56,391 nt of DNA from a virus. Lineage: Duplodnaviria > Caudoviricetes. How positions within the stretch are numbered: position 1 is the stretch's first letter; each line of letters opens with the position of its first letter. Location of the stretch: positions 1 through 56,391 of IMG/VR virus record IMGVR_UViG_3300011271_000006, one strand, 5' to 3'. Below are positions 1-22,339 of this stretch, piece after piece. Under the pieces are notes generated by a model. That model was not told the DNA's origin. It made no database searches and was given only the letters and a program-made list of their open reading frames with translations. The position numbers and the translations under genes were made by a program.

Positions 1-123
1 CCGCTGATATAACAGTAGCACCAGCAAATTTTACGCTTCCTGTTGTACAAAGTACATCACTACCAATAGTGCATCCACCTATAGCTAATGATGTTCCGGT
101 AGCAACACCTAATGCAGGAGTAA
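1..123. repeat. Terminal direct repeat, left copy (circularisation overlap)
   Basis: 1-123 (ccgctgatat...gcaggagtaa) is identical to 56269-56391 and lies inside one continuous reading frame. Confidence 0.97.
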
Positions 124-2971
124 TTAATGAGGGATTTGTTTGCATTACTGCAACTGTGCCAGTTCCAGTTAACGTATATTCTCCTAATACACCAGCATTA
201 TCATATAATATGCGTGTAGTTGTACCGCTAGTTATAGCTGTAGTACCGACTACCAAACTAGAGCTACCTCCACCACTACTACCACACGAGAATAGGTCAG
301 TTGATTGAGTATAATTTAAATGATTACCACCAGTATCTATGCAATTAGGAATAACCTTCCATGTTGGTACACCAGCTACATCAACTGGAACTGCGTGAGT
401 TAAAGGTGAACTTGACATATTTGCTAATGGTCCTAATACTATGGGAGCATTATAAGTACCATAATAAAACCCACCATTATATATAAATCCACCTACTGAT
501 AATGTAACATTACTAGAAGTAGTTGCTGTTGTAGATGATGTAATAGGTCCACTTGGACCCGAAATTTGAGAAGTTGAAGAAATTACAGAACCAGGAGGTA
601 TATTAGCTGCAACTATAGCTAAACCACGATAACCAATTGCTCCCATATATTTAGTTGCATATTCGTTAACAGCATCAAAATCAGCTTGGTTTAAAGCAAT
701 AGTATTACTGCCTGCTGTAAAAGTTGCTGATGTAAGACTAAGAACTACACCAGGAAGCCCAAGCAAAGTCGGTCCTGATCCTGTATCTGTTCCATCATTA
801 AGTGCAGCAGCAGGACCAACTAAAGCAAATGGAGGACCGTTATTTTGTGCTACTCCACCACCATCATTTAAAAAGCTTGAGGCATTAGTAGCTAAGAATG
901 CACCTTGATCAAGAGTAACAAAACCTGACAAATATCCAGAAACACCATTTATAGTTAATCCTGATGCAAAAAAGATTTGTGTTTTTTGATCAGATTGAAT
1001 AAAAGCACCTGATGGTTTTGTAAACACTACATTTTTAGCTGATCCTCCATCGCTAGCAATAGTAGTCTTATCAATAGTTATAGTAGTTCCAGTAACATTT
1101 GTAATTTTAGCAAATGGAGGAATACGAGAATAAATTGCTAATCCAATTGGAACAGAAGCATTAGTTACTTGTGTTACAACATCACCAATTGCTAATCCAG
1201 TGTTATTATTAACAATTATAGTAGTAGCAGTAATATTCCATGTTGCAGTTTTAAGATTTTGTGTTTTATTAATTATTATTCCAGTTCCAGCAAAACTAAG
1301 ATTGCTTAAATAACCAGGATTAATATCATTAAAACCTGTAGCATTAGGACCAAAAACAGTATTACTGCCTACAATTAATATATCATTAATGCCAGTTAGT
1401 GTAACCATATCATTACTACTTAAAGAACCATCAAGTGTAACATTTGAAATAGTTAAATGTGCTCCACCAGAAAGAAAAACTGTTCTTTCCGTGGTAGGTT
1501 GAACAACATATAAGGATGGAGTTGTAGTATTACCAGTAAGAATAATTTTAGTTGCGTCACTTTGTCCTGTAAGCGAACCATTAGCATTAATTCCAGTAGT
1601 ATAAGTACCAGCAGCAAATATAAAGGTAACTTGAAATCCATTAAAGTTATAACCTTTAGCCTTTTGCCATGCTCCTGCAAATGTTAGACATGGAGTTATA
1701 TTACTTATGCAATCATTAGAATTGCTACCTGTTGTCGATATATAAAATATTACATTAGAATTTGCTTCAATTATACCTGTATTAACAGTTGAAATTATAT
1801 TTCCAGTACATAATAAACCACTTCCACAAACAATAACTCCTGTCATTCCTCCAATCGATAATACACCAGTAGCAATTGCACTATTTGTATCAGGAGTAGT
1901 TTTAATTATATAATTTAATGAAATAGATGGTTGAATTCGACTAATTGGTGTTGATGGACTTGAGGCATTAACAGCATTATTACTTGCTACTGCACCTGAA
2001 CTATCAATATTATTTACAACAGTATGTGGTGTTCCCGCTCCATCTAAAGTAGCTATTTGATTATATTTTATTGTTAAAGGTGGTATGTTATTAGCAATAA
2101 GTGCTACTTGTTGATTACCACCAATAGCACCTTGTCCTGTAGGATCAATACCAAAATTAGTTGAACTAATTAATCCTCGATCTGTACCGCCCATATTTGG
2201 GCGACCGATAATTACTTGGTCACGAAGATCAGGGACATTGAATGTAGTTGTAGTATTACCATTACCAAATGGAAAAAATACAGCAGAAGAACTTAAAGTT
2301 ACACTTGATGTATTGCTAAGAGTAACTGTTGAAGCTGTTTTGGATAAAACAGTAGTTGTAGGAGTGACACAACTTACTTCAACTCTTGAACCTACTGAAA
2401 CTGAAGTTGTATCAGCAACGCCAGTTAAAATAGCACTTCCAGAAGTACAATTAACATTAAGAGTTTGGGTAATTGCAGTTAATAGATCAGGAAAATTAAC
2501 TCGTATTAATTCTTGACCAGCAGCAAATACATATTGATTAGGAGCAGCTATGCCAGCCCAAGGCTTGATTGTACCAACTAGATCGCCATCCCCTGTTGCT
2601 GGTGTTGATCCTCCTGAACCACCGGGCGCAGTAACAGCGTCCCAAATTATATTTCCATTTCGATCCTTAACAAGTTGCCTATAGGTTCCTTGACCATATA
2701 TACCAGCGTTGCTACCAGAAGGCTTACCACCAGCATCTAGGACAATTGGATTAGTCCAAGGAACAGTTTCTAAACTATCCTTCCAAACAGTCTTTAATGT
2801 TGGAGTAGCAGGAATATAAAATGTAACTGTACCGGCAGAAAGAGGCTTACCATTGTTATCGAAATATTGTTGAAGTGCATTAGGAAGTAATGAGGCTGTT
2901 TGAGCTAAGGCATAATCAATTTGGCAAATAAATAATAACAAATAAAGGAAATATTTAATGTTGGATTTCAT
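1..2971 (-). CDS. Tail fibre/tailspike, 5' part; continues across the junction into 56268..55001 (about 1412 aa in total)
   Basis: ATG at 2971 gives MKSNIKYFLYLLLFICQIDYALAQTASLLPNALQQYFDNNGKPLSAGTVTFYIP..TNPIVLDAGG (P22-type head-binding-like), then a tail-collar motif GTIKPWAG..FNVPDLR. The ORF track reports no stop in this frame and the frame matches the 55001-55984 ORF through the repeat. Confidence 0.88.
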   Translation of the reverse strand, partial: MKSNIKYFLYLLLFICQIDYALAQTASLLPNALQQYFDNNGKPLSAGTVTFYIPATPTLKTVWKDSLETVPWTNPIVLDAGGKPSGSNAGIYGQGTYRQLVKDRNGNIIWDAVTAPGGSGGSTPATGDGDLVGTIKPWAGIAAPNQYVFAAGQELIRVNFPDLLTAITQTLNVNCTSGSAILTGVADTTSVSVGSRVEVSCVTPTTTVLSKTASTVTLSNTSSVTLSSSAVFFPFGNGNTTTTFNVPDLRDQVIIGRPNMGGTDRGLISSTNFGIDPTGQGAIGGNQQVALIANNIPPLTIKYNQIATLDGAGTPHTVVNNIDSSGAVASNNAVNASSPSTPISRIQPSISLNYIIKTTPDTNSAIATGVLSIGGMTGVIVCGSGLLCTGNIISTVNTGIIEANSNVIFYISTTGSNSNDCISNITPCLTFAGAWQKAKGYNFNGFQVTFIFAAGTYTTGINANGSLTGQSDATKIILTGNTTTPSLYVVQPTTERTVFLSGGAHLTISNVTLDGSLSSNDMVTLTGINDILIVGSNTVFGPNATGFNDINPGYLSNLSFAGTGIIINKTQNLKTATWNITATTIIVNNNTGLAIGDVVTQVTNASVPIGLAIYSRIPPFAKITNVTGTTITIDKTTIASDGGSAKNVVFTKPSGAFIQSDQKTQIFFASGLTINGVSGYLSGFVTLDQGAFLATNASSFLNDGGGVAQNNGPPFALVGPAAALNDGTDTGSGPTLLGLPGVVLSLTSATFTAGSNTIALNQADFDAVNEYATKYMGAIGYRGLAIVAANIPPGSVISSTSQISGPSGPITSSTTATTSSNVTLSVGGFIYNGGFYYGTYNAPIVLGPLANMSSSPLTHAVPVDVAGVPTWKVIPNCIDTGGNHLNYTQSTDLFSCGSSGGGSSSLVVGTTAITSGTTTRILYDNAGVLGEYTLTGTGTVAVMQTNPSLITPALGVATGTSLAIGGCTIGSDVLCTTGSVKFAGATVISA

Positions 2972-3188
2972 AATGTTAATCCTAATACTTTATTTCTTAT
3001 ACAAAGCTAAAAATTATATTTGGATGCCTACAATACTTATCCTAATCGCTTATGGTTGGTATAAAATCGAGCCTCTTTACTGGTATGTACGTGTCAAAAT
3101 CAAGGGCCGATTGCTGGTAATGCATACTTTTGAGCACGTTGAAGAAGGGAAGATTTTGGACCTGGAATGTACTGAGATAAAGTCTTAA
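2958..3188 (+). CDS. Possible small membrane protein, antisense to the structural operon
   Basis: Two hydrophobic segments, but it overlaps both neighbours and may be spurious. Confidence 0.25.
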   Translation: MLDFIMLILILYFLYKAKNYIWMPTILILIAYGWYKIEPLYWYVRVKIKGRLLVMHTFEHVEEGKILDLECTEIKS

Positions 3189-5040
3189 TTAATTCATCAC
3201 GATCAGGTCCAGTAGCAGTTAGTAAATCTGTTAATCGTTCATTTCGAGATTTAGCTAATTTAAGTTTTACCATATCAGATAATTTATAACCGCCTTTTAA
3301 TGCTAATACTCCTGCTGTAGCAATGCCAGGAGGACCGCCTTGAGTAGCGGCCATAATTTCCCCTAATGCTGCTGGTAATGCAAGTTGTCCATGTGGTGTA
3401 GGTGTAGGTAAATCAACTCGCTTATCAGACTTCATCCTCATTGCTGTTTGAGAACCTTGAATTAATTTTTGATTAGTATCAGCAATAGATTTTTCATCTT
3501 GTAATTCTTTCATCATTTGATTGACTTCCTTCTTACCAAAAAGAAGTCCTAATTTATCAGCATTAAATTCAATCTCAGGAATATCAGTTCCTTTTTTAGC
3601 AGAAAATCTCATTCCTTTCATTTGCTGTTGAACAGCGATCCTAGCACCTTCCTTAGCTGCTTCTATTTGTTGCTTAGAAGCATTATCAACCCATTCCTTC
3701 CAAAACTCAGACCGATCATCCCATTGACCAGGACGATTACGAGTAATCTGAGCACCTTTAATAAAAGCATCTTCTACTTGTTTTTCATCCCTGAAATTAG
3801 ACAATCCAGGTTTATATTTTCCTCCTGATGCAGCATCAATTGCATTAACAATACCATTACGAACATGCATCAAAGCATATCCAATTTGTCGATCTTGACC
3901 ACTTGAACTATTAGTTAAATCATCAGCTTTTGCTCGCAATGCAGATTGAAATTGATGTAAATCATCAGCATTAGTTCTAACAGATTTGTTATCTGTTAAT
4001 AATTTTCTTGTACTTTCAAGAGCTTTTTGAATTTCAGGATAAGGTAATGGTTGACCAGCAGAAATATTAGACATAATTCCAGGTTTTAATTTATTATCAA
4101 TATCGCTAATAACTCCACTTAAATCTACAGGACCAGAAGCCTTGATAGCAGGATTAATTTCATTCTTACCAACATTTTTAGCAGCTTGCTTAAGCTCGTT
4201 TATCTTTTGAAGTACATTAACAGGAATACCCATTACATCATTATAAATACTTTCAACAGCGCCTTTAGCTGATGTAATACGATCATTGACAAATTCTTCG
4301 AATTTATTTTGATGTTGGCCTTCAGTAGTGATCAACTTTTGCGACATTTGGCGAGTAGCGGGAGAAACATCAGCTAAAGACAATCGAGGATTTTCTTGTA
4401 ATCGTTGAATAACTTGCGGTAAATTTTCAGGTCCAATTGCATCAACAAGTGCAGTAACAGCTTTATTAGATGGTTTAGCTTCACTTACAACTTTAGCAGC
4501 TTTACCAACTGGTAAGCCAAAAGTTGCAATCATTCCTGCGCGTTCACCAGTTTCTTGACTTCCAGTGAGCTTAGTAACAGGTTCCTCAATAGTAGCTTTA
4601 ATAGTTCCTGTTAATGGCGATGTTGCCATTGCCAAAGCGCCTAAACCAATTTTACCAATTCCACTAGCAGGTAGATTTAATCTAATATCTTCTAAACCAC
4701 TGGAAAGTGTTTCGCGTCCTGCTGAATAATTTTCTCCAATTCCTTTTAAAATTTGAGTTGGTAAATTTGTAGCATAATCTACAACATTGCTTAATGGTGT
4801 AGCAGGAGCACCAGAACCTTTGACATTAACTTGACCAGAGGCTTTACGAGCTTCCCATTCAACAGGTGTTGGAATTCTTACAGCTTCCCAAGCCGATGTT
4901 GATGAAACAGGTTCAGGAACAATTTCATTTCCACTGTATTTATTAATTAATCCTTTAACATCAATACCTTTTAATAGATCACTTGATCCATATTTATTAG
5001 TTAAACTTTCAATATCAACATCTTTTAAAGGATCAGCCAC
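3100..5040 (-). CDS. Internal virion / DNA ejection protein
   Basis: 646 aa, helical and Ala/Lys/Gln-rich; third gene of the ejection cluster before the tail fibre, as in P22 gene order. Confidence 0.65.
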   Translation of the reverse strand: MADPLKDVDIESLTNKYGSSDLLKGIDVKGLINKYSGNEIVPEPVSSTSAWEAVRIPTPVEWEARKASGQVNVKGSGAPATPLSNVVDYATNLPTQILKGIGENYSAGRETLSSGLEDIRLNLPASGIGKIGLGALAMATSPLTGTIKATIEEPVTKLTGSQETGERAGMIATFGLPVGKAAKVVSEAKPSNKAVTALVDAIGPENLPQVIQRLQENPRLSLADVSPATRQMSQKLITTEGQHQNKFEEFVNDRITSAKGAVESIYNDVMGIPVNVLQKINELKQAAKNVGKNEINPAIKASGPVDLSGVISDIDNKLKPGIMSNISAGQPLPYPEIQKALESTRKLLTDNKSVRTNADDLHQFQSALRAKADDLTNSSSGQDRQIGYALMHVRNGIVNAIDAASGGKYKPGLSNFRDEKQVEDAFIKGAQITRNRPGQWDDRSEFWKEWVDNASKQQIEAAKEGARIAVQQQMKGMRFSAKKGTDIPEIEFNADKLGLLFGKKEVNQMMKELQDEKSIADTNQKLIQGSQTAMRMKSDKRVDLPTPTPHGQLALPAALGEIMAATQGGPPGIATAGVLALKGGYKLSDMVKLKLAKSRNERLTDLLTATGPDRDELIKTLSQYIPGPKSSLLQRAQKYALPAIGP

Positions 5041-5041
5041 G

Positions 5042-6406
5042 TTAATGCATACCTTGTTTCTGCATTATATCAAGTGTTTTAATAAATTTAATAGCAACTT
5101 TATTACCAGTCTTAGCTTTTTCTAATTGCTCATTAAATATTTTTGTCTGTTGATTTTCTGGCAAGAAATCAAACATAGCAGCGTCTAAACTCATTTTTTG
5201 TGGGAAACTAGATTTATGTGCTCCATATTTAGAATAATCATTTCCTTCAAAAGCTCCCGGCCTCGCTGCTTCAATTCGATCTTGTGCTATAGTAGTTTGA
5301 GTTAATTTAACCAAAGCGGGAAGAATTTGTGTTCTAAGATTTGGATTAGACATTTCTTTAGATGCTAATTCAGCATCAGAACGGCTACCATTTCTTGAAA
5401 CATATTGTTCAAGATATTTATTAACTTCTTGATAAGCTACAGTAGGATCAGCAGCCTTGTCAGATACAACACCTATATTTCGTAATAGCGCTATTCCTTT
5501 ATTCCATGCTTCAGTACCAGGACCAGAAGCAACAAGAGAAGGCATTAACTTTAAAGCTTGTAATGCTGGTGTAACAGCAGTCATTTTAGAAGTAGCTAAA
5601 TTTTGATCTTCAACAAATTGCTTTTTACCTTCCTCAAATAATGGTGGCATTCCGGTAATTGGTCCTCTTGGCATAGGCGGATTACCATATGCTGCACCAA
5701 AACGACTATCTAATGAAGCAGGAGGTTCAACAGGTAATGTTTGAACAGGTGTTCTAGTTGGAGGCATGACAGGAGCAGGGGCAGCCGTAGGCGCGATATT
5801 TCCTACCGGCGGTAGTGTACCTACCGGAAGCGATCTTGCGCCTACTGGTGGCGGTCCTGAGACGCTTCCAGGGGCAAGCTGTGGAGGTTGAGCACCTAAC
5901 ATTTGAGGTTGCCCCGTAGGTCCGACAGTTGGCGTTGTCGGCGGCGGTTGAACCTGAATAGGTGCGCCAGTAGCTCGCATACCAAATTTAGGACTTGTAA
6001 CAGTTGGTGTTATTGTTTGACCTGTATCAACTGCTCCCGGAGTACCGTAATGAAAATTAATCGCTTCTTGTGTTGTTTGTAATCGGGTTCTTATATTCTG
6101 CATAAATGCAGGAATTTGTCTTGGATCAGTAGGAATTTGACTTACAAAATTAGCATACATTTCAGGCTTAACAAAACGCATCTTAACTGCATTTTGAGCT
6201 ATTTTATCTAGTTGTTGGGGTGTTGCATTATCACCAGCAGCAGCTAATTCACGAATTAAATAGCTATAACCTTGATTAACAAGGTCTAATTGTTTTTGTT
6301 CAATACCTAAAGATTGAGACTTTAAAGCACCTAATTCACCCGCTGTTTCCAGTACAGATTTACCCTGATTAGGACGAGGATAGCTAGAGGTATCAATTTC
6401 TGGCAT
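5042..6406 (-). CDS. Internal virion / DNA ejection protein (gp20-like position)
   Basis: 454 aa with a Pro-rich central linker; follows the gp7-like gene. Confidence 0.6.
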   Translation of the reverse strand: MPEIDTSSYPRPNQGKSVLETAGELGALKSQSLGIEQKQLDLVNQGYSYLIRELAAAGDNATPQQLDKIAQNAVKMRFVKPEMYANFVSQIPTDPRQIPAFMQNIRTRLQTTQEAINFHYGTPGAVDTGQTITPTVTSPKFGMRATGAPIQVQPPPTTPTVGPTGQPQMLGAQPPQLAPGSVSGPPPVGARSLPVGTLPPVGNIAPTAAPAPVMPPTRTPVQTLPVEPPASLDSRFGAAYGNPPMPRGPITGMPPLFEEGKKQFVEDQNLATSKMTAVTPALQALKLMPSLVASGPGTEAWNKGIALLRNIGVVSDKAADPTVAYQEVNKYLEQYVSRNGSRSDAELASKEMSNPNLRTQILPALVKLTQTTIAQDRIEAARPGAFEGNDYSKYGAHKSSFPQKMSLDAAMFDFLPENQQTKIFNEQLEKAKTGNKVAIKFIKTLDIMQKQGMH

Positions 6407-6415
6407 TATATCTTA

Positions 6416-6616
6416 CTATTTAATAGTTAATGTTGATGTTAATAATTGATATTTATACTTTTTCTTATTGCACCATTGATATAAATAATCTATTGTTTTT
6501 CCTATTGTCCATTCTAATACAGGAGCAGAATTAGTTATTTTTCTAGTATTGTTATCCCAAATAACACCAGCTACATAATAAGGTGTAGTTATTTGTGATA
6601 AATTAAAAAGCATCAC
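6416..6616 (-). CDS. Hypothetical protein
   Basis: 66 aa; ATGA overlap with the upstream gene. Confidence 0.6.
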   Translation of the reverse strand: MMLFNLSQITTPYYVAGVIWDNNTRKITNSAPVLEWTIGKTIDYLYQWCNKKKYKYQLLTSTLTIK

Positions 6617-7392
6617 GCAGCTTCTTCATACAAAGCAGTAGGCAAAGGTGAACCACCAGGACCAAAAACCATTCTTGAATTATTCACATTACCTGGATTA
6701 TTGCTAGAATTATCATACAATCCTTTGTAGGCATAATAACCACCAACATCACTAGCTAGTTTAGAAAATGCTCCGCCTGTAGCATTGATAGCCGCTGCTC
6801 GTGCATTACCAGCACCAATAGCTGCTCCACCAGCTTGACTACCAGCCGTTACTACTGGTCCTGCTGTTCCTGTTCCTACTGCTCCACCTTGTACCGTAGC
6901 TGTTTGACCACCGCTTACTAAAGCCTGTAAACGATTAAATGCATTTGAACGATTAATATTTTCAAGATTAAATTGTGTTTGATAGGTTTGATCGGCTAAA
7001 CCAGTAGCAAAAGTTGCTGCACCTTTTAATGCTGCTCCTGAAACTCCTAATCCTCTAGCTGCTGCTGAATTCTGTACAGCTTTCAAACCTTGTGTTTTAG
7101 TGAACTGATAACCAGGAGTTTGTTCTAATGCATTTTGATCCATTACAATAGGAGAAGTCAAATAATCAAGTCTACTAGATAAATCATTCGCTGCTTTTGT
7201 TCCTAATTCTCGATATGGAGCTAAATCACTATATGTTGTGTTATAAACTCCCTTAGCATAACTCGCACTATCTTTTGCAATACCAGCGGCGATATTAGCT
7301 GCTTCTGTTTGAGCATTAGCAGCTTTATTAGCTGAATAAGCTGTCGCTGCTGCACCAACAGCACCAGCACCAATAATTGCTACTGCAACCAT
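6613..7392 (-). CDS. DNA ejection protein, P22 gp7-like
   Basis: Gly/Ala-rich N-terminus and the motif LEQTPGYQF..QG..AVQNSAAARG...SGAALK. Confidence 0.8.
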   Translation of the reverse strand: MVAVAIIGAGAVGAAATAYSANKAANAQTEAANIAAGIAKDSASYAKGVYNTTYSDLAPYRELGTKAANDLSSRLDYLTSPIVMDQNALEQTPGYQFTKTQGLKAVQNSAAARGLGVSGAALKGAATFATGLADQTYQTQFNLENINRSNAFNRLQALVSGGQTATVQGGAVGTGTAGPVVTAGSQAGGAAIGAGNARAAAINATGGAFSKLASDVGGYYAYKGLYDNSSNNPGNVNNSRMVFGPGGSPLPTALYEEAA

Positions 7393-8437: not shown

Positions 8438-8775
8438 TTAATTACCGCTCCATAAACAGGAATAAACTTCACTGTTGGTAATCCTGTATATGTAATTTTG
8501 ATAATATCATCTATTGAAACTGGAATTAATTTAACACCAGTTACATCAATGCTTACACTACCACGAGTTAAAGTGATTGCTGATACTACACCACCAGCAA
8601 TCGAAACATATCCAGGTTCTTTAGCTGTATATGAAAATGGTGAAACTCCTACAATAATAGCTAAAAATTTAGGTGGAGCTTGGGTAAATTGTTGAAGATA
8701 GCTATTCCAAGGTGAAACAATTGTTCCAGTTACTTTATTAACAAAAGGTGAAGATTGATTAGGTAAGGGTTGCAT
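8434..8775 (-). CDS. Putative virion protein
   Basis: 113 aa, beta-rich, coupled to the gp10-like gene. Confidence 0.55.
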   Translation of the reverse strand: MQPLPNQSSPFVNKVTGTIVSPWNSYLQQFTQAPPKFLAIIVGVSPFSYTAKEPGYVSIAGGVVSAITLTRGSVSIDVTGVKLIPVSIDDIIKITYTGLPTVKFIPVYGAVIK

Positions 8776-10232
8776 TAGGAACGTGCCTTTACAGCATCAA
8801 TAAATCCACCATTCAATGCTGTCTTGATAGCTCCCGACCATTGTAGCCTGAATATACGATCGCGCGCCATTCCTAGCCTATTCCAAGATACAATAGTCAA
8901 AAATTCGCCTCCTTTCCCCATGCTTTGATCAATAGGAAAGCCAAAAGTTATTCCTCTATCATCGGACCAGCTAAGCGACATGACAGGAGGATTAAGTGCA
9001 CTAGCAGGATCATTTGTACCTACTTCAACATCAGCGTCAAAATGTTTATATATTACTCTGTCTAAATCCTCAACCAAATGAGCAAAAGTCTTGATACGAG
9101 GAATTGGTACAGTATCATCAGTATATAAATCACTATCTAGTTCATAAATTTTACCATTCTCAAAATCACCAACATAAAGATTTTCATTAAAATACATACA
9201 GCAATTAGAACGATGTCTATTTAATATTCCTGTATTCTGATTAAACCAATTCCATTCATTCCATTGTTTTGTTTTCAATTCATAAAGCCAAGTCTTATTA
9301 GCTTGTGGAAAAACAATACAATAAAATGCATGATCATCAATTTGAAAACAAAAACCTATAGCATCATTTACTATCGTATATTTTGAAAATTCTGCAACAA
9401 GAAATGGAGTAGATATTTCATTTACTTGATAATTAGAACCTGCAACAACAATACATTTACCTTGTTTATCTTGCATCAACCAAAAAGCAATAATATCTTG
9501 ATTTGCAGCAGAATAAGCAGCAATACAACCATGCTCAATATAAGCACCTTGAACAAGCTGAAAATAAAAATCTGCCGCTCCTGTCCCTATCCAAACTTCA
9601 GTAGTTAATTGACCAATTAACCAAAGTTCTTTATGATCTGTAATTATCGCTACAATAGGATCAGCAGAACCACTCTTAGCCGCTATGTCAAGAGGATCAA
9701 ACGAAGTACCAGCAGTTAATAGCGTATAACTTACTTGAGATAATGAAATATAAAATTGATTAGTACCGGGGCGATTAAATATAAAAAATGTATCAAGGAA
9801 AACAACAAACGCTGCACCAAAAAATGAAGGATCAATAATAGGACCAAAAACATTACTTACCATATTAATAGCCCAACCGCTTGTACCATCAACAAGTACA
9901 ACAGCTAGACCATTATCAGCCATTATGACTTGGCTTTGTCTATCAGGTATAGTTCCTATAAATGATAATGCTCCATTAACAGCTACAGCATATAAATTCG
10001 GGCCTATGACAGTATAAGCAGTACCCAAACTTGTTCGATATAAACAACGCACTTTTCCATTTGCCATTTGATTAGCAAATGTAAGAGTACCAGGAGTTAA
10101 ATAATATGTTGAAGGTGAAGGTGCTTGAGCATCATCAGAATTCATTTCTTCATAAAGATTGATAGTTTTCATTGCGCCAGCAATGACGCTTCGCTCCTGA
10201 TAGGCTCGACCTGATAATGGTATTCGAGGCAT
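8775..10232 (-). CDS. Packaged DNA stabilisation / tail hub protein, P22 gp10-like
   Basis: 485 aa beta-propeller-like; C-terminal SWSDDRG.TF...MG..GE....V.WNRLG.ARDRIFRL. Confidence 0.85.
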   Translation of the reverse strand: MPRIPLSGRAYQERSVIAGAMKTINLYEEMNSDDAQAPSPSTYYLTPGTLTFANQMANGKVRCLYRTSLGTAYTVIGPNLYAVAVNGALSFIGTIPDRQSQVIMADNGLAVVLVDGTSGWAINMVSNVFGPIIDPSFFGAAFVVFLDTFFIFNRPGTNQFYISLSQVSYTLLTAGTSFDPLDIAAKSGSADPIVAIITDHKELWLIGQLTTEVWIGTGAADFYFQLVQGAYIEHGCIAAYSAANQDIIAFWLMQDKQGKCIVVAGSNYQVNEISTPFLVAEFSKYTIVNDAIGFCFQIDDHAFYCIVFPQANKTWLYELKTKQWNEWNWFNQNTGILNRHRSNCCMYFNENLYVGDFENGKIYELDSDLYTDDTVPIPRIKTFAHLVEDLDRVIYKHFDADVEVGTNDPASALNPPVMSLSWSDDRGITFGFPIDQSMGKGGEFLTIVSWNRLGMARDRIFRLQWSGAIKTALNGGFIDAVKARS

Positions 10233-10282: not shown

Positions 10283-11263
10283 TTATATCCCATCCGCGTT
10301 GAAAATATTAAAACTTTTACCTTTTCTAAGTCCAATTGGCATTTGCATTGCTGGTATCTGTGCATTAGCTTTTTTGATTGTATTCAAAGCTACTTTAGCT
10401 AATGCAACAGTTGTTCCTTTAGGCTCTAATTGATAAGCTGAAAGCAATCGAATAGCTAAATTATAATGTAACGCTTCCTCATATTCAGGAGGCATATCAA
10501 TATCACTATCTAAATTAGATGTAGTATTATTGACTGTATAAGTAAATCCTGCTCCTGCTCCACCTAAATTAACATTAGAAGCAGTTAAAATATCACCAAT
10601 ATTAAAATCTTCACCACCATCGCCTAATATAACTACAGTAACAATACCACCAGCAACAGTGATATTAGCTGTAGCTCCTGTACCCACACTCAATAGAGGA
10701 TCAACAGGAGCTAAAGGAACAGCAACATAAGCACCATTAACATAACCAGCGCCAGCAGTTGTGATACTTCCTGCTGAAATAGTTGTGGGGAAACCAATAG
10801 CTGATTTGATTAATAAATGAATTTCATATTGATTATTAGGAATAGGCCAACAAAATACATTTCCATAAGGATAAGCAGCATCATAAAAAAAATGATCAGG
10901 TAAACTATTTAAATTCTTGACTGTAATCCTTATATAGTCCTCATAACTGAATATTGGATATAATGGTAAACTTACAGGAGTATTACCAGTATTCAATTGA
11001 ACAACATAAGCGCCTTGAATTTTATCAGGTCTAGGTGCGTTATAATATTGACCAGGACCAATTTTGTTTGATTTTAAACTATTGCCTACATTAACTACTT
11101 CTTGTAATGATGGCACAAGATATCTTCGACGCTGCCATTGTGCCACCATTCTTTTTAAAAGTGTAAAAGCATCATTAGTATCTTCAGCAAGCGGAGTTTG
11201 GCCGACACCAAGGGGTCCAGCCTCTTTTAAAGCTAGAGTGATAATATCGCGTGCTGTAGTCAC
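10283..11263 (-). CDS. Head-tail adaptor (gp4-like) with an inserted beta domain
   Basis: MTTARDII..AL...G.LGVGQT...ED..DA...L..M N-terminus and MPPEYEEAL.YNLA.RL C-terminus. Confidence 0.75.
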   Translation of the reverse strand: MTTARDIITLALKEAGPLGVGQTPLAEDTNDAFTLLKRMVAQWQRRRYLVPSLQEVVNVGNSLKSNKIGPGQYYNAPRPDKIQGAYVVQLNTGNTPVSLPLYPIFSYEDYIRITVKNLNSLPDHFFYDAAYPYGNVFCWPIPNNQYEIHLLIKSAIGFPTTISAGSITTAGAGYVNGAYVAVPLAPVDPLLSVGTGATANITVAGGIVTVVILGDGGEDFNIGDILTASNVNLGGAGAGFTYTVNNTTSNLDSDIDMPPEYEEALHYNLAIRLLSAYQLEPKGTTVALAKVALNTIKKANAQIPAMQMPIGLRKGKSFNIFNADGI

Positions 11264-11510: not shown

Positions 11511-12758
11511 TTATACGCGATCTGCACAGACGCACAACCACTCGGGCCTTATATAAGTTTGCCCGAATAAAACATCAACTCTTGTTGCCAACTGATCACT
11601 TCCAGGAAGATAATCAGTCAAAATACGCATGGCGATACCATCATATTCTGCTCGTGCTGCTTCTTCAACAGCCTTGCGAGGCAACACAAGATCAGCGGTC
11701 GCCATCGTAACAGCCTTTTGCGTATAGGCAATGCTCTTACGATAAACCTCACCACTCTTGCTCGCCATGACAATCGCCGCACCATTCAACGGCGATGCAT
11801 CAACAGTTTGGTATTGAACATCAGGACCACCGGCAACACCAGTTGCAGAAGGTACAAGGCCCGGATAAACACTGATTGAAACAGCACCACTAGCAGCATC
11901 AGCAGTAGCAACAAACTGTCGAAGTGTTCCCAAAGATTGTTTGGTAACACGATTGACTGCATTAACAGCACCAAAAGTTAAAATATCACCTTTCTTAATA
12001 GTGCCATTAGTCGCATTAACTACAATAGCGCCACCACTTACAGCAGTAGTTTGACCACCACCATTGACAGTAGCCAAACTATCATAAGTGCCTGAAGTAT
12101 GTTTAATCACAGTTTGATCGCGAAACCAACGCTCATAACCAAGACCTGATTTCATCATACCAGTGCGATATTGTGCACTAATTTCAGTTGCAGGATTAAG
12201 TAGTCCCTGCAATGAAACAGTAGTGCGTGCATCAGTAGTAGGATCATTGACAACTCGCCTAGTCATAGGATCAGCCGAGTTATCATCAAGGATAGCATTA
12301 GCAAGCAGGAATTGCTCAGAAGTCGGGCTAATAATGTTTCCACCACCGTCAACATTAGAAACAAAATTACAAACGCCACCTTCCGAAGCCAACATAACCG
12401 TTGCCGCAACCTTACCAGCTAGGTTATTGATCATTGGTGCCATGACGATTTCCGAATAATCATCAATGGACATAGTACGTTCCGCAGTAGTAAACGGAAC
12501 AGCAACATTCTTTTGTGAGGTTACAGCAAGAGTAGTAAACTGTGCAGTAGTATTCTGCAATTGCATTGCAGGACCATCAGAGACAGTATAATCATTGGGT
12601 AATCTGATACGAAGAATAGAACCAATCTTCGCACCATCAATGGCAAAAGTGCCATCATACTGAGTATCCATATTCATGATAAAGAGATTACTATTTTTAA
12701 ATAATCTAACAGCTTCTCTGGTAATCATATCTATCGTAAGGAGGGATGAACCGGCCAT
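11511..12758 (-). CDS. Major capsid protein, P22 coat family
   Basis: LLTIDMITREA, GAKIG..LRIRLP, C-terminal RVDVLFG...IRPEW; position after the scaffold gene. Confidence 0.92.
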   Translation of the reverse strand: MAGSSLLTIDMITREAVRLFKNSNLFIMNMDTQYDGTFAIDGAKIGSILRIRLPNDYTVSDGPAMQLQNTTAQFTTLAVTSQKNVAVPFTTAERTMSIDDYSEIVMAPMINNLAGKVAATVMLASEGGVCNFVSNVDGGGNIISPTSEQFLLANAILDDNSADPMTRRVVNDPTTDARTTVSLQGLLNPATEISAQYRTGMMKSGLGYERWFRDQTVIKHTSGTYDSLATVNGGGQTTAVSGGAIVVNATNGTIKKGDILTFGAVNAVNRVTKQSLGTLRQFVATADAASGAVSISVYPGLVPSATGVAGGPDVQYQTVDASPLNGAAIVMASKSGEVYRKSIAYTQKAVTMATADLVLPRKAVEEAARAEYDGIAMRILTDYLPGSDQLATRVDVLFGQTYIRPEWLCVCADRV

Positions 12759-12960: not shown

Positions 12961-13191
12961 TTAGTCAATTACAAATCGCTCATCGCGGCGATATTTTTCA
13001 CGCTTACGATTATCAGCAATATCGCTAAAAATTGGAGTTTCAAGCTCATTCTTACCTTTATTTTCACATTTTAATAAATTTAAATATAGTTTACCACTAC
13101 TAAACCATGTACATGATGTAGTAATATTATCACTTATATTGTAACTATTATACACAACACAAGAATAAAATAATAATTCATAAATATTCAT
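12961..13191 (-). CDS. Hypothetical protein
   Basis: 76-aa ORF with TAATG coupling to the scaffold gene; no recognisable motif. Confidence 0.35.
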   Translation of the reverse strand: MNIYELLFYSCVVYNSYNISDNITTSCTWFSSGKLYLNLLKCENKGKNELETPIFSDIADNRKREKYRRDERFVID

Positions 13192-14057
13192 TATCTCATT
13201 CCTGATAATCGCTGTTTTCGCCTTTCCTCAACCTGCTGATTACGAATACGAACAAATTCAGCCATGCTTTCTTTACCAGTCAAAACAGTTGGTGTTCGTG
13301 CACCACCACCAAGAGGTTCAGGAGGCTCAGGAACTTTAGAAAGTTTCTTTTCCTTATCCTTCTTGGCTTGTTCAGCTAAAGTTGCTGAAAGCTTAGCAAG
13401 TCTAACAGCCATACGAGCAGGACTTAATGACCAAATTTCTTCAGCGTCATCAACATTATTAACTAGATGATTTAGGATAGCTCCACCATTATCCAAATCA
13501 TCAAGAATACCAATCATTTGACTTGGAATAGGTCCAATGTCTTCAGCTAAGATTTTAACTTTGCTATCAAAATCCTTATCAATCTTCTTTGCTGCATCAG
13601 CTAAACGATTGCAAGCAGCAGTAAATTCCTTTTCAAGAATTTTACGAGAAGCAATGTTTTCAGCTTCTTTTTCCAAATCTTCGCGAGTTAAGGTTTCACC
13701 TTCCTCTGTGGTTTTAGCTTCAAGCTTCTTTTCAAGATCAGCAACCTTGCGTTCTAATTCTTTGCGTTTGCCAACTTCTTTATCAATGCGTCTTTGAATA
13801 CGCTCTTTATCTTTTTGAGTTTTAGCCGCAGCTAATTCAGCTTCTAATTCTTCTTCAGTTTTTTCGCTTCCTTCTTTATCAGCTTCCAAAGCCGCTTTTT
13901 CAGCTTCGGCCTTTGCTTCCGCTGCTTCTTCATCAGCTTTCTTAGTGACTTCTTCAGCTTCAATTTCTTCAGGAGTTTTTGTCTCTGATTGAGTAACTTT
14001 AATCTTTTCACGTTCAGCAGCAGCTTTCTCAGCAGGAGTTAATTCTTTATCAGTCAT
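13191..14057 (-). CDS. Scaffolding protein
   Basis: Acidic/charged coiled coil (RIQRRID), PEPPEPLGG linker and basic C-terminal helix; upstream of the coat gene. Confidence 0.8.
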   Translation of the reverse strand: MTDKELTPAEKAAAEREKIKVTQSETKTPEEIEAEEVTKKADEEAAEAKAEAEKAALEADKEGSEKTEEELEAELAAAKTQKDKERIQRRIDKEVGKRKELERKVADLEKKLEAKTTEEGETLTREDLEKEAENIASRKILEKEFTAACNRLADAAKKIDKDFDSKVKILAEDIGPIPSQMIGILDDLDNGGAILNHLVNNVDDAEEIWSLSPARMAVRLAKLSATLAEQAKKDKEKKLSKVPEPPEPLGGGARTPTVLTGKESMAEFVRIRNQQVEERRKQRLSGMR

Positions 14058-14496: not shown

Positions 14497-14890
14497 TGAT
14501 TTTATCCTTATGTAAAACCGTTTTAGGTTCAGTTTTAATTTCAATAACCTTTTTCTTCTCAATCATTTCAAGATTTTTTATTACCTTATTAATATCAATA
14601 TTCGGCATATATTTATTCAATGTTGGATCATTATGCCTTTCCATAAGTGCATCATAAATTAGTTGTTTAGCGCTTTCAGAAAAGCTAGGATTACCTAATA
14701 TATCAATTAGATGTTGAACTGCGCGTGGTATAAATTTCTCCACATTAGCTCTAGCGTAAGTTCTAGCATTTTTCCATTTACTTGTCATTCCCTGAGAACG
14801 ACCAATTTCGTACCATGTTGTAGCAAGTGCCAATGCTGTTTCCTCAATCACTTTATGCTTAGGTATTGTAATAATGTCCATAACATTCAC
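14489..14890 (-). CDS. Hypothetical protein
   Basis: 133-aa ORF within a tightly packed operon. Confidence 0.6.
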   Translation of the reverse strand: MNVMDIITIPKHKVIEETALALATTWYEIGRSQGMTSKWKNARTYARANVEKFIPRAVQHLIDILGNPSFSESAKQLIYDALMERHNDPTLNKYMPNIDINKVIKNLEMIEKKKVIEIKTEPKTVLHKDKING

Positions 14891-15840
14891 AATAAAAAGG
14901 GGTTATAGTCAACGGGTGTGATCTTAGGTTTCTTCCTATCTTCAAACTCAGGAGTATGATCAACTGGTGTAACACCAGCAGAGAAAAGTGGAAAGCCTTC
15001 TTTCAAAGCTTTAGCTTTTAATTCCGGTGTGAGTTTAAGGACATGAATAGTTTGCTTACCTACAATTGGTTTTAATTCACCACCATATTTTTCAGCTAAA
15101 GCTTTACTTCCATATTTACTTATAGCTTCTTTAAAAGTTTCTCCATTATGCATAGCATTAGCTATATCTGTTAATTGACTATCTTCCCTAGCTGTTAATT
15201 TTAATTTATCAGATTTAGATTTTAATTCATTAATATCCAAATCAGGACCATTATATTCATATCTTAAATCACTTACTTTTTGAATTTCCTTCTGCTCAAC
15301 CTTACTACCATATTTCTTAGATATTGCATTAGCTTTAGCAACTAACATATCATCATAGAACTTCATCATACCTTCACCACCAACTTTAAGATCAAGACCT
15401 GATAGAAAATGAATTTCTTTATTAGGACTTTTATCAGTTGGTGAATTAATAAGTTTATCAGCAGCTTCTTTACCTACATAATCAGTTAATTTATCAGGTC
15501 CAACTTGTTCACGAATTACAACTTTCCCATTATGATCTTTAGCTTGTAAATCATTATTAGTTTTATTCCAACGTAATTCAGTTATTTGCTTACTTAAATC
15601 ATATCTAGCTGCTTGTGCTTCACCAGGGGTCCAACTGATCGCGTCCTTATTTTCCTCCACTGCTTGTCGAATAACTCGCTTTAATAATAAATCAGGCCAA
15701 GAGGTTTTGAATGGAGCGTTAGGTAAATTTTGAACATCAGGAATAAATTTATATGCTTCAGAAGGCAACATTTTTTCTAGCTCTTTAGCTAATTCATCTT
15801 GTGTATATTCTTTACCCTTATATTCAAATCTACATGCCAT
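14887..15840 (-). CDS. Large-polyvalent-protein-type domain, C-terminal half
   Basis: PNAPFK.SW..L.LKR....AVE...DAISWTPG..QA.RYDLSKQI and LKVGGEGM..FYD motifs. Confidence 0.65.
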   Translation of the reverse strand: MACRFEYKGKEYTQDELAKELEKMLPSEAYKFIPDVQNLPNAPFKTSWPDLLLKRVIRQAVEENKDAISWTPGEAQAARYDLSKQITELRWNKTNNDLQAKDHNGKVVIREQVGPDKLTDYVGKEAADKLINSPTDKSPNKEIHFLSGLDLKVGGEGMMKFYDDMLVAKANAISKKYGSKVEQKEIQKVSDLRYEYNGPDLDINELKSKSDKLKLTAREDSQLTDIANAMHNGETFKEAISKYGSKALAEKYGGELKPIVGKQTIHVLKLTPELKAKALKEGFPLFSAGVTPVDHTPEFEDRKKPKITPVDYNPFLL

Positions 15841-16489
15841 TGTAAAATCTCAAAGACGTATTATTAGTTCTATGACCCGAAAGCATGTTATATAAAGTTT
15901 TCATTTTTAAATTATAATTATCAACAGCCTTTCCCACACTCGGGTAAACTTGTTTTGTAAAATCATCAATTACTTTTCTAGCAACTTTGGTAATTTTACC
16001 ATAATTAGGATTTTTATCACTTAATTTAGCTAAAGCTAAATTATCTCGCCATGACTGAGGAAGTTTATCATCACGCTTTACAACACCACCATTACCGTCA
16101 TTCTTTCGAGCAACGCGAATAGCTGAAATCCAAGCTTCTGATCTAAAACCACTAGCCGCAATACTTCTTTTCTTTCTTAATTCATCAGATATAGTTAATC
16201 CACAAAAACTTTCGCTACCATCAGTTAAATTAACAAGATTTTCACGACCTATTATAGCTATAATTTCTTTTTCTAATCGTTGCGCTTCTTCATCAGTTTT
16301 ACAATTAGCTATTACATTAATTATAATACCATGTTTATTAACAATATTTTTCCAATGATTATTACTATGAGTCTCGCGCGCTCTATTATAATTATGAATT
16401 TTGTCTTTAGCGCGATGTGAGCCTTTACCAACATAAAAAGGCATTCCATCGCTGGCTTTAAAATGAATATAAACGTAATGTCGCCACAT
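15830..16489 (-). mobile_element. Free-standing GIY-YIG-type homing endonuclease
   Basis: YVYIH....G.PFYVGKG..RA, A..LE..II, LVNLTDG, with NUMOD-like C-terminal segments; likely ATG at 16489. Confidence 0.8.
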
Positions 16490-16490
16490 G

Positions 16491-17717
16491 CTAATCACAA
16501 ATCTTTTTAATTACACCAGCTTGTATCATACGATCAGTAATGTTGTCAAAATCTTTATTTATAGCTTCTTTAATTTTTATACTTTCGCGTCTATGACCCT
16601 GCCCAAAATCACTTTGTATTTCTTCAATATGTAAACTCTTTCCTACTCCTGGTATATCTCTATCATTCATACGAATATGAGCTAAGACATTAGGTTCATC
16701 CCAATGTGAGGTTTTGAAAGTTTCACTTATATTACCTTCTTTTCGATCAAAACTATCAGCGACCGCTTGTGCTTCCCATTCCTTATTATATTGACCAAAT
16801 TTCTCACCATTGGGCCTTAAAACCTTATAATAACCACCTTCATTTATAATTTTATTTTGAGCACCTTTTCGCTCAGGCAACTGTAACAACAATTCCCTAT
16901 AACTATTACCACCAGAAAGTTGCCATTGAGAATATTTAGGCGAATTAAAATTATCAGGATCAGAAGTTGAACCTCCCTTCCAAACCTCATTCAATCTAAC
17001 CTTATTATCAGCAATATGTTGCTCTAATTGCTGTTTTGTAATCTGACCTTTAGGTAAGCTTTCTAAATTAGTCCAAGCTAATTCCTCTTGTCTAATTCCA
17101 GGTTGATTTTTAAGAAAACCTAACCATTGCTCGGCTGTAGCTGAATTCTGCTTAGCATTGCTTACAGCCTTTTCAACTGTGGAAAAAAAAGTAGGAGCGA
17201 CTTCACCAGTCATTTGTTTACCCATTTGTCTAACCATTCCACTACCTAATGATACTATTCCAGCTTTCATCGCTAAAGGACCACCACCGGCCATACCAGC
17301 AATATCTTGTGCTCGCTGAATTCCTTCCTCACTTAAAGGATCAACTTCACCACTATAAACTTGACCAGGAAGTGTAGCAGCACTTCGCACCATTCTCTCA
17401 GGCCAAATTTGATAACGATTTTCACCAATCAAAGCTTTACCATATTCCTTAACAGGAGCTTGACTAGCCGCTACATCTTCAGGACTAGCTTGCCTAATAG
17501 GTTGTCTAGCTCGCATACGAGCAGCTACAGCTTCCCAAGGATTATAAACTAATTCAGGTGGTGTTTCAACTGGAAGCGCAAAAGATTGAGCTTGAGATTG
17601 AATAGTTTGAGAACTAACTACAGGATATAAAGGATTAACTGTATCGTCGCCAGTAGGTTCATTCTCACCAGCTTGATAATACGGTAAACCTTCTTCAGTA
17701 TATTGAAGCTTAGCCAT
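16491..17717 (-). CDS. Large-polyvalent-protein-type domain, N-terminal half
   Basis: KYSQWQL.GG..YRELLL.LP and SHWDEPNVLAHIRMNDR....K.LHIEEIQSD motifs. Confidence 0.65.
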   Translation of the reverse strand: MAKLQYTEEGLPYYQAGENEPTGDDTVNPLYPVVSSQTIQSQAQSFALPVETPPELVYNPWEAVAARMRARQPIRQASPEDVAASQAPVKEYGKALIGENRYQIWPERMVRSAATLPGQVYSGEVDPLSEEGIQRAQDIAGMAGGGPLAMKAGIVSLGSGMVRQMGKQMTGEVAPTFFSTVEKAVSNAKQNSATAEQWLGFLKNQPGIRQEELAWTNLESLPKGQITKQQLEQHIADNKVRLNEVWKGGSTSDPDNFNSPKYSQWQLSGGNSYRELLLQLPERKGAQNKIINEGGYYKVLRPNGEKFGQYNKEWEAQAVADSFDRKEGNISETFKTSHWDEPNVLAHIRMNDRDIPGVGKSLHIEEIQSDFGQGHRRESIKIKEAINKDFDNITDRMIQAGVIKKICD

Positions 17718-21446: not shown

Positions 21447-21911
21447 TTAGAATTGAACATACGAAATTGAACCTTGAGCAATGATGCTTCCACTGCTTAT
21501 AGCACACAAAGCATTGCCTATCGGTATATACAAAACAGTTCCTAATCCATTACCTTTAGTAAATACAGTTGAAGTACCAAAAGTGTAAGTACCAGTTAAA
21601 TCATGTTGACCAGTGCCACAATTAGTTCCTGTCCCATAAACCCATTTAAATGTGCCTCCTGCACTACTAACTAAATCCCAAGATGTTACATAAATAGTTT
21701 GACCTGTAACAGCAGCTACAATTTGTGTAGTTGTAGCTGAAGAAATTGCTATAGGTAAACTATTAGACGCTGCCACAGCTTGAGCGCAATTACTCCCATT
21801 CGTTGTATAACAAAGAGCATTAGGCGATTGAGCAGAAGCAAAATTGGCGCCTAAAAACAGCGCCACTGTCACTAAAATTCCCAATAAGCATTTCATATTG
21901 ATAACCCTCAT
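21447..21911 (-). CDS. Secreted-type small beta protein with a signal peptide
   Basis: MKCLLGILVTVALFLGANFASA/QSP; four Cys in the mature part; Ser/Thr/Gly-rich. Confidence 0.7.
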   Translation of the reverse strand: MRVINMKCLLGILVTVALFLGANFASAQSPNALCYTTNGSNCAQAVAASNSLPIAISSATTTQIVAAVTGQTIYVTSWDLVSSAGGTFKWVYGTGTNCGTGQHDLTGTYTFGTSTVFTKGNGLGTVLYIPIGNALCAISSGSIIAQGSISYVQF

Positions 21912-22339
21912 TAAGAAATCTTTGCACCAGCATTAGAGTACCAAGCAGCAACACCAGCAGAACTAACAGAAAGACAATAATAATCACTTCTTTTTGCTGC
22001 CGCTTGTGCAACACCTATAGCAGTAGCTACACCATCAATCGTATCATTATTAGCACCAAAAACTTGAGCACTTTGAGCACCGTCATTTATAACAACAACT
22101 TGTGCACCAGCAGAAGGTTTAGATGGAAGTTTTACACTATCACCACCAGTGGCACAAATTGAAATTCTATTTAAACTTGCTGTTAATTGGTATGCGTTTG
22201 TTTTACCTCCACCGGCTTTAGCTGTTATAGTATCCTCAAAACTTAATCCAGTATAAGGACCGCCAAATAAAGAATTAAGAGATTGACCATTAATTAATCG
22301 AAAACCACGCGGAAATAAAGTAACAAATGTTCCAGCCAT
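21911..22339 (-). CDS. Putative capsid decoration / minor structural protein
   Basis: 142 aa, Ala/Gly-rich: ITAKAGGG..NA.QL, DSVKLP, INDGA....VF. Confidence 0.5.
   Translation of the reverse strand: MAGTFVTLFPRGFRLINGQSLNSLFGGPYTGLSFEDTITAKAGGGKTNAYQLTASLNRISICATGGDSVKLPSKPSAGAQVVVINDGAQSAQVFGANNDTIDGVATAIGVAQAAAKRSDYYCLSVSSAGVAAWYSNAGAKIS

Follow-up and report, generated by a model that had tools for sequence, protein, structure and literature searches.

The window analysed here, the whole 56,391-nucleotide stretch of IMG/VR virus record IMGVR_UViG_3300011271_000006, is a complete, circularly permuted P22-like phage genome of 56.3 kb with a GC content of 35.9%, whose ends overlap exactly over 123 bp (bases 56269-56391 duplicate bases 1-123). 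No near-identical DNA was found among cultured phages for bases 40000-56391. A single fibre gene on the minus strand crosses the ends, running from 2971 to 1 and then from 56268 to 55004. Its 5’ part (1-2971, codons 1-990, with the ATG at 2969-2971) runs off the start of the window, and its 3’ part (55001-56391) is a 462-aa piece that comprises codons 951-1412 and the TGA (55001-55003) and includes the 123-base duplicate. With the ends rejoined and the duplicate removed, the product is 1412 aa long, the length estimated in an earlier sequence-only reading of this DNA. The join is supported because the residues that span it, 951-1039, align contiguously to homologue P0001 (38% over 99 columns), and the C-terminal 150 residues match the end of homologue P0072 (70%).

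The fibre gene is the last of the structural operon, with the ejection genes before it and the lysis genes after it. Directly upstream on the same strand are three ejection-protein-like genes (259, 454 and 646 aa; 3100-7392), which match phrog_598 ‘DNA ejection’ and phrog_5880 and are syntenic with loci L005-L008. Also on the minus strand are the cognate partners of a P22-type tailspike, namely a P22 gp10-like tail hub (head closure Hc3; 8775-10232; phrog_578, E 2.4e-93), the expected docking partner of the fibre’s head-binding domain, and a head-tail adaptor (10283-11263) in which a P22 gp4-like (Ad3) C-terminal part is fused to an extra N-terminal domain (phrog_637, phrog_12985). The lysis genes (53592-54867, minus strand) directly downstream of the fibre consist of a leaderless endolysin with GH25 and DPBB_1 domain matches (53893-54867) and a protein of 102 aa (53592-53900) that contains two hydrophobic stretches and that we read from its sequence as holin-like; inspection by eye of positions 52880-53620 revealed no convincing o-spanin. 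When the gap preceding the fibre gene was scanned for promoters and terminators, one weak promoter-like site emerged, fewer than in shuffled sequences. The genome also carries an envelope-directed module, in which a Wzy_C O-antigen-ligase-like gene lies between two secreted proteins.

The fibre begins with a leader (residues 1-23; 2903-2971), and a P22-type tailspike head-binding, or particle-binding, domain (residues about 24-125; 2597-2902) comes immediately after it. Sequence profiles (PDB 9vyg, E 3.3e-8; 7eeq, 6.2e-8; also phrog_26190) bear out the virion-attachment-like domain that the sequence-only reading had placed after the leader, and so does the fold, with Foldseek matches to 9vyg (5e-5), 7eeq (4.1e-4), 2vnl (4.7e-4), 7sg7 (5.5e-4) and 1lkt (9.8e-4). 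The N-terminal model behind these matches has a pLDDT of 80-93 over residues 41-110 and is mediocre overall (mean pLDDT 66.9, pTM 0.42). A phage tail collar domain (PF07484; residues 133-170; 2462-2575; 33.3 bits against a cut-off of 24) follows, and the remainder of the family-conserved N-terminal module extends to about residue 400 (1772-2596). The distal part (residues about 401-990; 2-1771) is variable and beta-rich and has no family match. The fibre family (537 clusters at 50% identity, E<=1e-30) combines a conserved N-terminus with a mosaic distal part. Near the C-terminus, residues 1312-1353 (55181-55306) match Peptidase_S74 weakly, at 16.7 bits and thus under the cut-off of 22. The same domain (PF13884) reaches 24 bits, above that cut-off, in homologue P0052 (35% over 141 aa to the fibre), and no match to it was found in P0072 (70% over 150 aa). 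The fibre probably carries a C-terminal Peptidase_S74-type chaperone domain, with a direct match below the Pfam cut-off. As to a type IX secretion C-terminal sorting domain, no family of NCBIfam, which presumably contains models of such domains, matches either fibre piece.

By its residues, the leader is of the 23-residue Sec/signal-peptidase-I type. It reads M1-A23 and continues with Q24-T25, exactly as previously quoted, and has a basic n-region (K2 and K6 in MKSNIK), a core of 12 hydrophobic residues (Y7-I18) and a c-region (D19-A23) ending in A21-L22-A23, with small uncharged residues at -3 and -1 directly before Q24, where the cut is predicted. In the predicted structure, residues 2-18 form a detached helix. 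We considered a Tat signal and rejected it, as the leader has no R-R motif; residues 1-23 are without any Arg, which indicates the Sec route, in which the protein is exported unfolded. A lipoprotein (signal peptidase II) signal was likewise rejected, as C16 is preceded by F-I and there is no lipobox; most of the leaders inspected among the best 120 homologues, judged by eye and not by count, show no Cys. The ATG is preceded by AGGA at a distance of 8 nt, and the sole other canonical start codon before the head-binding domain is a TTG at codon 11, within the leader itself.

The leader is conserved throughout the homologues, as the sequence-only proposal would lead one to expect. All five close IMG/VR relatives have it, and it is complete in 118 of the best 120 homologues and in 87 of 90 further cluster representatives, the other two and three sequences beginning inside one; the homologues within each sample are related, so these counts are of non-independent events. 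The architecture is kept while the sequences of the leaders diverge. The N-termini of the best 120 homologues have K/R-rich starts throughout, and the best 9-residue Kyte-Doolittle mean of the hydrophobic core has a median of 2.9 (n=115), with three sequences just below 2.0. At 113 sites predicted with our own heuristic cleavage rule, which is not a trained predictor such as SignalP, the -1 residue is A (87), S (21) or G (5), and the -3 residue is A (50), V (31), S (11), L (9), T (6), I (3), G (2) or C (1). None of 119 other tailspikes with the same head-binding domain has a leader (0/119), and distant relatives without a leader have their initial Met no more than a residue or two from the predicted cleavage point. 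The leader is present in 0/6 matching records of cultured phages, and the cultured-phage collection searched contained no member of the leader-bearing family. Two scans of genome contigs for prophage or MAG relatives returned distant, leaderless or collar-domain-only matches only. In three of six loci examined, a TTG or ATG follows the predicted cut at a distance of no more than about ten codons, so a leaderless isoform is possible at those three; in the window and loci L005 and L007, the stretch from the leader to the conserved motif contains no canonical start.

The predicted mature N-terminus shows the Q-rule feature, with Gln at +1 (Q24) after the predicted signal-peptidase-I cut. Gln occupies this position at 86/113 and 72/88 predicted sites in the family (76-82%), compared with a Bacteroidetes mean of 71% given in one study (PMC5837995). 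The three other predicted secreted proteins of the genome also expose Gln at the predicted cut. A Bacteroidota host is favoured by the GC content and by the Atlas structural neighbours of the Wzy-like gene, which lean to Bacteroidota. Against such a host count the Shine-Dalgarno-like motifs found before 27/59 genes, versus a background of 11.6%, and the nearest cultured phages, which infect Proteobacteria.

The cysteines of the fibre follow a pattern that goes with the leader. There are 13 in total, C16 in the leader and 12 in the mature part, and the latter form six consecutive pairs separated by 6 to 26 residues. When 12 cysteines were placed randomly in 1389 positions, such pairing arose in 4 of 200,000 trials (2e-5). 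All five cysteine motifs quoted earlier are present (382/388, 421/428, 877/896, 967/975 and 1285/1302), and a sixth pair, 175/201, had been missed. Pairs 175/201 (2447-2449 and 2369-2371) and 382/388 (1826-1828 and 1808-1810) lie in the N-terminal module, and their four cysteines, C175, C201, C382 and C388, are invariant in 52 sequences. Pairs 421/428, 877/896 and 967/975 lie in the variable distal part, and pair 1285/1302 (55385-55387 and 55334-55336) just upstream of the Peptidase_S74 match. The variable distal part aligns too poorly for its cysteine columns to be tested for covariation; for pair 421/428, one sequence had both cysteines, three had one only and 48 had none. The mature cysteine count is even in 117/120 and 88/90 of the leader-bearing family samples, across unrelated distal domains and counts that span 4 to 26, whereas it is even in 50/119 of the leaderless tailspikes with the same head-binding domain. 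Judged from these proteins, an even cysteine count is associated with the presence of the leader.

Taken together, the leader features, their conservation, the cysteine parity and the Met starts of leaderless relatives favour the earlier proposal of export and oxidative folding outside the cytoplasm. There is strong comparative evidence that the fibre is probably exported and oxidatively folded. We consider it likely that it folds outside the cytoplasm, because it has a predicted export signal and fully paired cysteines, as in hundreds of relatives.

An exported fibre need not be a virion protein, and the alternative that fares best is that the product works as an enzyme that binds or cuts glycans in the infected cell’s envelope, while the particle uses another receptor-binding protein. 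Possible roles of such an enzyme are removal or alteration of the receptor polysaccharide, a block to superinfection, or easier release. A precedent is WceF of Pantoea stewartii, a non-virion protein in which a cleaved Tat export signal is combined with a P22-like head domain and a trimeric beta-helix (PMC7949094). The WceF structure (6tgf) is among the fold matches of the fibre at E 2.2e-2, and the Wzy_C O-antigen-ligase-like gene with its two flanking secreted proteins would suit an envelope role. We nevertheless regard this alternative as unlikely. Among all six-frame ORFs of at least 60 aa, the profiles of the head-binding domain and the middle module match none but the fibre ORF, the ORFs scanned yielded no further fibre or spike candidate, and the matching P22-type adaptor and hub are present. 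The gene occupies the position at which P22-like phages keep their tailspike gene, and a conserved anchor with a swapped tip is the pattern of receptor-binding proteins.

A less probable alternative, which we think doubtful at best, is that the leader is translated without driving export, acting instead as a hydrophobic N-terminal propeptide or membrane tether removed by another protease, or keeping the fibre on the cytoplasmic side of the membrane, with the cysteine pairs oxidising only once released into the medium. Phage structural proteins can give false signal-peptide predictions, and disulfides could in principle form after lysis in air-exposed water. In a survey of Porphyromonas gingivalis phages, such predictions on major capsid proteins are ascribed to prohead-protease cleavage (PMC10367356). 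However, none of the ORFs scanned here matched a prohead protease family, the -3 and -1 residues fit signal peptidase I at 113/113 scored sites with Gln next at the frequency given above, and the even cysteine count goes together with the leader, all of which speak against a leader without export. Finally, that the start was mis-called and the leader is untranslated upstream sequence merely open in frame, a concern raised by the tendency of gene callers to choose the longest ORF and by the TTG or ATG just after the predicted cut in three of the six loci, is highly improbable and was rejected, because the window, L005 and L007 offer no alternative start, AGGA precedes the ATG, and non-coding sequence would not keep an open frame with signal-peptide architecture in 205/210 homologues despite their diverged leaders.

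The preferred reading, in which the fibre is an exported virion protein, suggests the following route, which as a whole we somewhat favour. The primary product would be a precursor carrying a cleavable Sec signal peptide, and it would be threaded unfolded through the inner membrane. Signal peptidase I would cut after A-L-A23, the same point at which leaderless relatives begin with Met, leaving a mature N-terminus of Gln24 that may cyclise to pyroglutamate. In the periplasm, the six cysteine pairs would be oxidised to local disulfides, and the chains would then trimerise, probably aided by a putative C-terminal self-cleaving chaperone domain. Meanwhile, capsids with the P22-type adaptor and hub would be assembled in the cytoplasm without fibres. 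We infer export, cleavage and disulfide formation, as well as the time and place of docking: once the holin opens the inner membrane, the head-binding domains would dock on the hubs of these cytoplasm-built particles. The particles would become infectious only at lysis, because docking waits for the holin to open the inner membrane. Docking after holin action would need to be fast or to follow dilution, and no factor that would help it was found. In P22, tailspikes are added to finished heads as the last assembly step, which also proceeds in vitro.

Extended to the family, this route leads to a broader proposal on which we are evenly divided: a large P22-like clade (the 537 clusters) may have moved the last step of tail assembly outside the cytoplasm, storing a Sec-exported, pyroglutamate-capped, disulfide-stapled spike in the periplasm that docks after the holin breach, so that infectivity is gained at lysis. 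The waiting spike could bind or cut nascent surface polysaccharide and thereby strip the dying cell of receptor. If true, a receptor-binding protein maturing in the periplasm would add a compartment to tailed-phage assembly, make infectivity dependent on the host’s Sec, signal peptidase and disulfide machinery, and couple the final step of assembly to the timing of lysis. Such maturation would also account for the disulfide-stabilised, extracellular-grade fibres of environmental phages. A practical consequence is that these fibres would misfold during cytoplasmic expression in host-range or depolymerase studies, and annotation pipelines would overlook them if they dismiss signal peptides on structural proteins as spurious.

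The accepted view is that tailed phages assemble their particles wholly in the cytoplasm, and our literature searches returned no description of a Sec leader on a tailed-phage fibre or of such an assembly route. The tailspikes of P22 (gp9), Sf6 (gp14) and cyanophages Pam1 and Pan3 (1lkt, 2vnl, 7sg7, 7eeq and 9vyg) share the N-terminal particle-binding domain with the fibre, and P22-type phages have the same type of adaptor and hub genes and likewise place the gene last in the structural operon. For P22 gp9, folding is cytoplasmic. In Rhodoferax phage P26218, MW202557, Pseudomonas phage PAE2, loci L009-L024 and the 119 leaderless proteins, Met stands at the domain, there is no leader and the cysteine counts are without parity, unlike in the fibre. 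The K1F and phi92 endosialidases and T5 pb1 have a C-terminal Peptidase_S74 intramolecular chaperone, a domain of a kind that the fibre, with its weak match, probably carries; such a domain would permit trimerisation without cytoplasmic chaperones. Unlike the fibre, these Peptidase_S74 fibres and endosialidases are not known to have an export signal. Phage proteins that use host Sec include signal-peptide and SAR endolysins, spanins and the filamentous-phage coat proteins pIII and pVIII, and to our knowledge those of tailed phages are lysis or exclusion proteins, not virion appendages. The pIII and pVIII proteins are virion proteins with Sec leaders, as we propose for the fibre, but filamentous phages assemble at the membrane without lysis, unlike the phage described here. 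Porphyromonas gingivalis prophages encode signal-peptidase-I substrates predicted to expose an N-terminal Gln, like the fibre, whereas the cases given in that survey are five genes of unknown function and not a tail fibre (PMC10367356). WceF resembles the fibre in its cleavable export signal, P22-like head domain, neck and trimeric beta-rich body and is bound for the periplasm or beyond, but it has a Tat signal, is exported folded, belongs to a bacterial exopolysaccharide cluster and is no part of a phage (PMC7949094). The fibre, in contrast, has a leader without Arg, which points to export through Sec in an unfolded state, and its gene is the single spike gene of a complete phage genome.

The fibre gene lies across the two ends of the window (56,391 bases, zero N), which are joined by an exact 123-base overlap. 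In the database the record counts as a complete virus genome flanked by direct terminal repeats; since the gene spans the ends, this 'terminal repeat' is the sign of circular permutation in the assembly, not of physical ends. With the duplicate taken out, the frame runs on the minus strand from 2971 to 1 and then from 56268 to 55004, reaching a TGA at 55001-55003 after 1412 residues, and homologues align contiguously over the join. The sequence-only reading had described a Sec-type signal peptide at the start of this protein, and residues 1-23 bear that observation out: Lys occurs twice among residues 1-6, a hydrophobic core of 12 residues comes next, and D-Y-A-L-A then leads up to Q-T.

The gene belongs to a P22-like structural operon on the minus strand, with the small terminase at 24065-24661, large terminase at 20071-21432, portal at 17717-20086, scaffold-like protein at 13191-14057, major head protein at 11511-12758, gp4-like adaptor (Ad3) at 10283-11263, gp10-like hub (Hc3) at 8775-10232 and three ejection-protein-like genes at 3100-7392. 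The fibre gene follows these and precedes an endolysin that has no leader and carries GH25 and DPBB_1 domains (53893-54867, minus) and a small protein, holin-like in our reading of its two hydrophobic stretches (53592-53900, minus). The adaptor domain occupies residues 238-312 of its product, whose N-terminal fusion partner is phrog_12985, of unknown function, and the part between resembles virion fibre or structural proteins (phrog_6005, phrog_5342). The product of the ejection-protein-like gene at 6613-7392 (minus; phrog_598) is hydrophobic and rich in Ala/Gly at its start. A GIY-YIG-like ORF lies between the portal and scaffold genes (15830-16498, minus; 22.5 bits, below the cut-off of 27), and a GIY-YIG and NUMOD3 homing-endonuclease-like gene lies inside the replication module (41164-41850, plus). 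Elsewhere we found an endonuclease VII domain (46826-47509), a ParB-HTH domain protein (28217-29098, minus; 39 bits), a sole tRNA, tRNA-Leu with anticodon TAA (25440-25518, minus), and no integrase among the window ORFs scanned.

Among solved structures, the family profile of the fibre matched 9vyg, which contains the tail spike chains of cyanopodophage Pan3 (E 3.3e-8), and 7eeq, the 'Tailspike head-binding domain' of cyanophage Pam1 (E 6.2e-8). An AlphaFold model of residues 1-430 has a mean pLDDT of 66.9, rising to 80-93 between residues 41 and 110, and residues 2-18 of the leader stand apart in it as a helix; the fold matches 9vyg, 7eeq, the P22 head-binding domain (2vnl, 1lkt), Sf6 gp14N (7sg7) and in-situ P22 hub-tailspike complexes. 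A tail collar domain lies at residues 133-170. At the C-terminus, a Peptidase_S74 match falls below threshold, while a homologue of the same segment scores above it. The fibre might be an exported enzyme that is absent from the virion, a reading with a bacterial precedent in WceF of Pantoea, which combines a Tat signal with a P22-like head domain. We consider this improbable: the fibre is the only ORF of the genome with a head-binding domain, and the genome also encodes the adaptor and hub that go with it. Neither a type IX sorting domain nor any other NCBIfam family matched the fibre.

The leader recurs among relatives. A scan of viral contigs gave 21 loci. Five are close, sharing 48-56% identity with the fibre from residue 1 to about 430, and all of these encode leaders of the same build and different sequence, with V-F-A, L-Y-A or A-F-A ahead of the Gln. 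Of the other 16, which are distant, the 15 translated have Met right at the domain. Searching a 5.8-billion-protein collection returned 364 hits, and among the best 120 of these a full leader was present in 118, the remaining two (homologues P0056 and P0075) beginning inside it, as expected of truncated gene calls. When 1.84 billion cluster representatives were searched exhaustively with HMMER, 537 proteins reached E<=1e-30, 1978 reached E<=1e-10 and 6077 reached E<=1e-3. Among the matches listed were 91 new representatives; of the 90 analysed, 87 carry a full leader and three begin inside one, and a leader is likewise visible in the single representative not analysed. The cultured-phage collection held only six matching records, each limited to fibre residues 20-113. 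In Rhodoferax phage P26218 and in MW202557 the annotated gene begins one codon ahead of the match, and in Pseudomonas phage PAE2 the frame opens with Met at the domain. This tailspike-like frame (OK041467.1, about 14858-16600) is unannotated; in its place the record has two small CDS on the opposite strand, each called 'hypothetical protein'. The leader is therefore an extra element confined to a single large uncultured clade, and its predicted removal would give back the N-terminus of the leaderless relatives.

Cleavage sites were placed by our own -3/-1 rule at 113 positions; six of the 121 sequences (120 plus query) lacked the anchor pattern and were excluded from this count, although their printed N-termini still show leaders. 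Ala fills position -1 at 87 of the 113 sites, Ser at 21 and Gly at 5. Position -3 has 50 Ala, 31 Val, 11 Ser, 9 Leu, 6 Thr, 3 Ile, 2 Gly and 1 Cys, and position +1 has 86 Gln, 9 Val, 8 Thr, 4 Asp, 2 Gly, 2 Ala, 1 Tyr and 1 Glu. In the second sample, among the matches listed, Gln takes +1 in 72 of 88 placed sites, so that Gln follows the cut in 76-82% of family sites. It also follows all four predicted signal-peptidase sites of the genome (fibre, 21447-21911, 23433-24002, 26677-26937). In one survey, Gln at this position averages 71% in Bacteroidetes and is far lower in most other groups covered (PMC5837995), and another study reports that some phage proteins of unknown function obey this Q-rule (PMC10367356). 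The host signals of the window conflict. The rate of Gln after the cut is typical of Bacteroidota, and the low G+C content (35.9%) and the Atlas neighbours of a Wzy-like gene are in line with that group. Shine-Dalgarno-like motifs, which stand ahead of 27 of 59 genes as against 11.6% of random positions, speak against it, and so do the cultured phages closest in portal and polymerase, which infect Proteobacteria. Whichever the host, the Gln enrichment would be hard to explain unless the leaders are truly cut.

Of the 13 cysteines in the fibre, C16 lies inside the leader and the 12 mature ones form six consecutive pairs, 175/201, 382/388, 421/428, 877/896, 967/975 and 1285/1302, among which are all five pairs noticed earlier from the sequence; random placement gave such pairing in 4 of 200,000 trials. 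When 52 diverse members are aligned, C175, C201, C382 and C388 are present in every one, and past residue about 400 the family is mosaic. The mature number ranges from 4 to 26 and is even in 117 of 120 (best 120 of 364) and 88 of 90 (among the matches listed), with another Cys within 30 residues for 1239/1363 and 984/1100, respectively. As a control we took tailspikes with the same head-binding domain and no leader (119 of 120 analysed; leader in 0/119): the count is even in 50/119, most commonly 9, and 595/927 Cys have such a neighbour. Related sequences occur within each of these samples, so the counts cannot be treated as independent; even then the difference is striking, and an even, locally paired set accompanies the leader, the pattern expected of a protein making disulfides outside the cytoplasm. 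That the leader is present and does not drive export is, given these cysteines and the Gln enrichment, quite unlikely. The ATG (2969-2971, minus) is the first start past a stop. A mis-called start is very improbable, as this ATG has AGGA 8 nt upstream and the only other canonical start codon ahead of the conserved domain, a TTG at codon 11, lies inside the leader.

Other predicted secreted proteins occur in the genome. A 2.6-kb insert between the small and large terminase genes (21447-24002, minus) looks like a surface-polysaccharide modification module. Two of its products are predicted to be secreted, one of 189 aa (cut G-V-A before Q-Q, 4 Cys) and one of 154 aa (cut A-S-A before Q-S, 4 mature Cys); the others are a protein of 142 aa and a polytopic one of 357 aa that resembles O-antigen ligases (Wzy_C, 41.2 bits; cut-off 31.7). 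An 86-aa protein at 26677-26937 (minus) begins much like a signal peptide (cut V-Q-A before Q-Q) and matches no family.

We favour, with moderate confidence, a route in which the fibre would be exported by Sec, cut before Gln24, and oxidised and trimerised in the periplasm, and would join fibre-less particles once the holin opens the inner membrane. Because the endolysin has no export signal, lysis should, in our reading, need a holin that makes large holes. Among the papers listed by full-text literature searches, none described an export signal on a tailed-phage fibre. In P22 assembly, tailspike addition is the last step and works in vitro. We regard the fibre as a P22-type tailspike that probably matures by another route.
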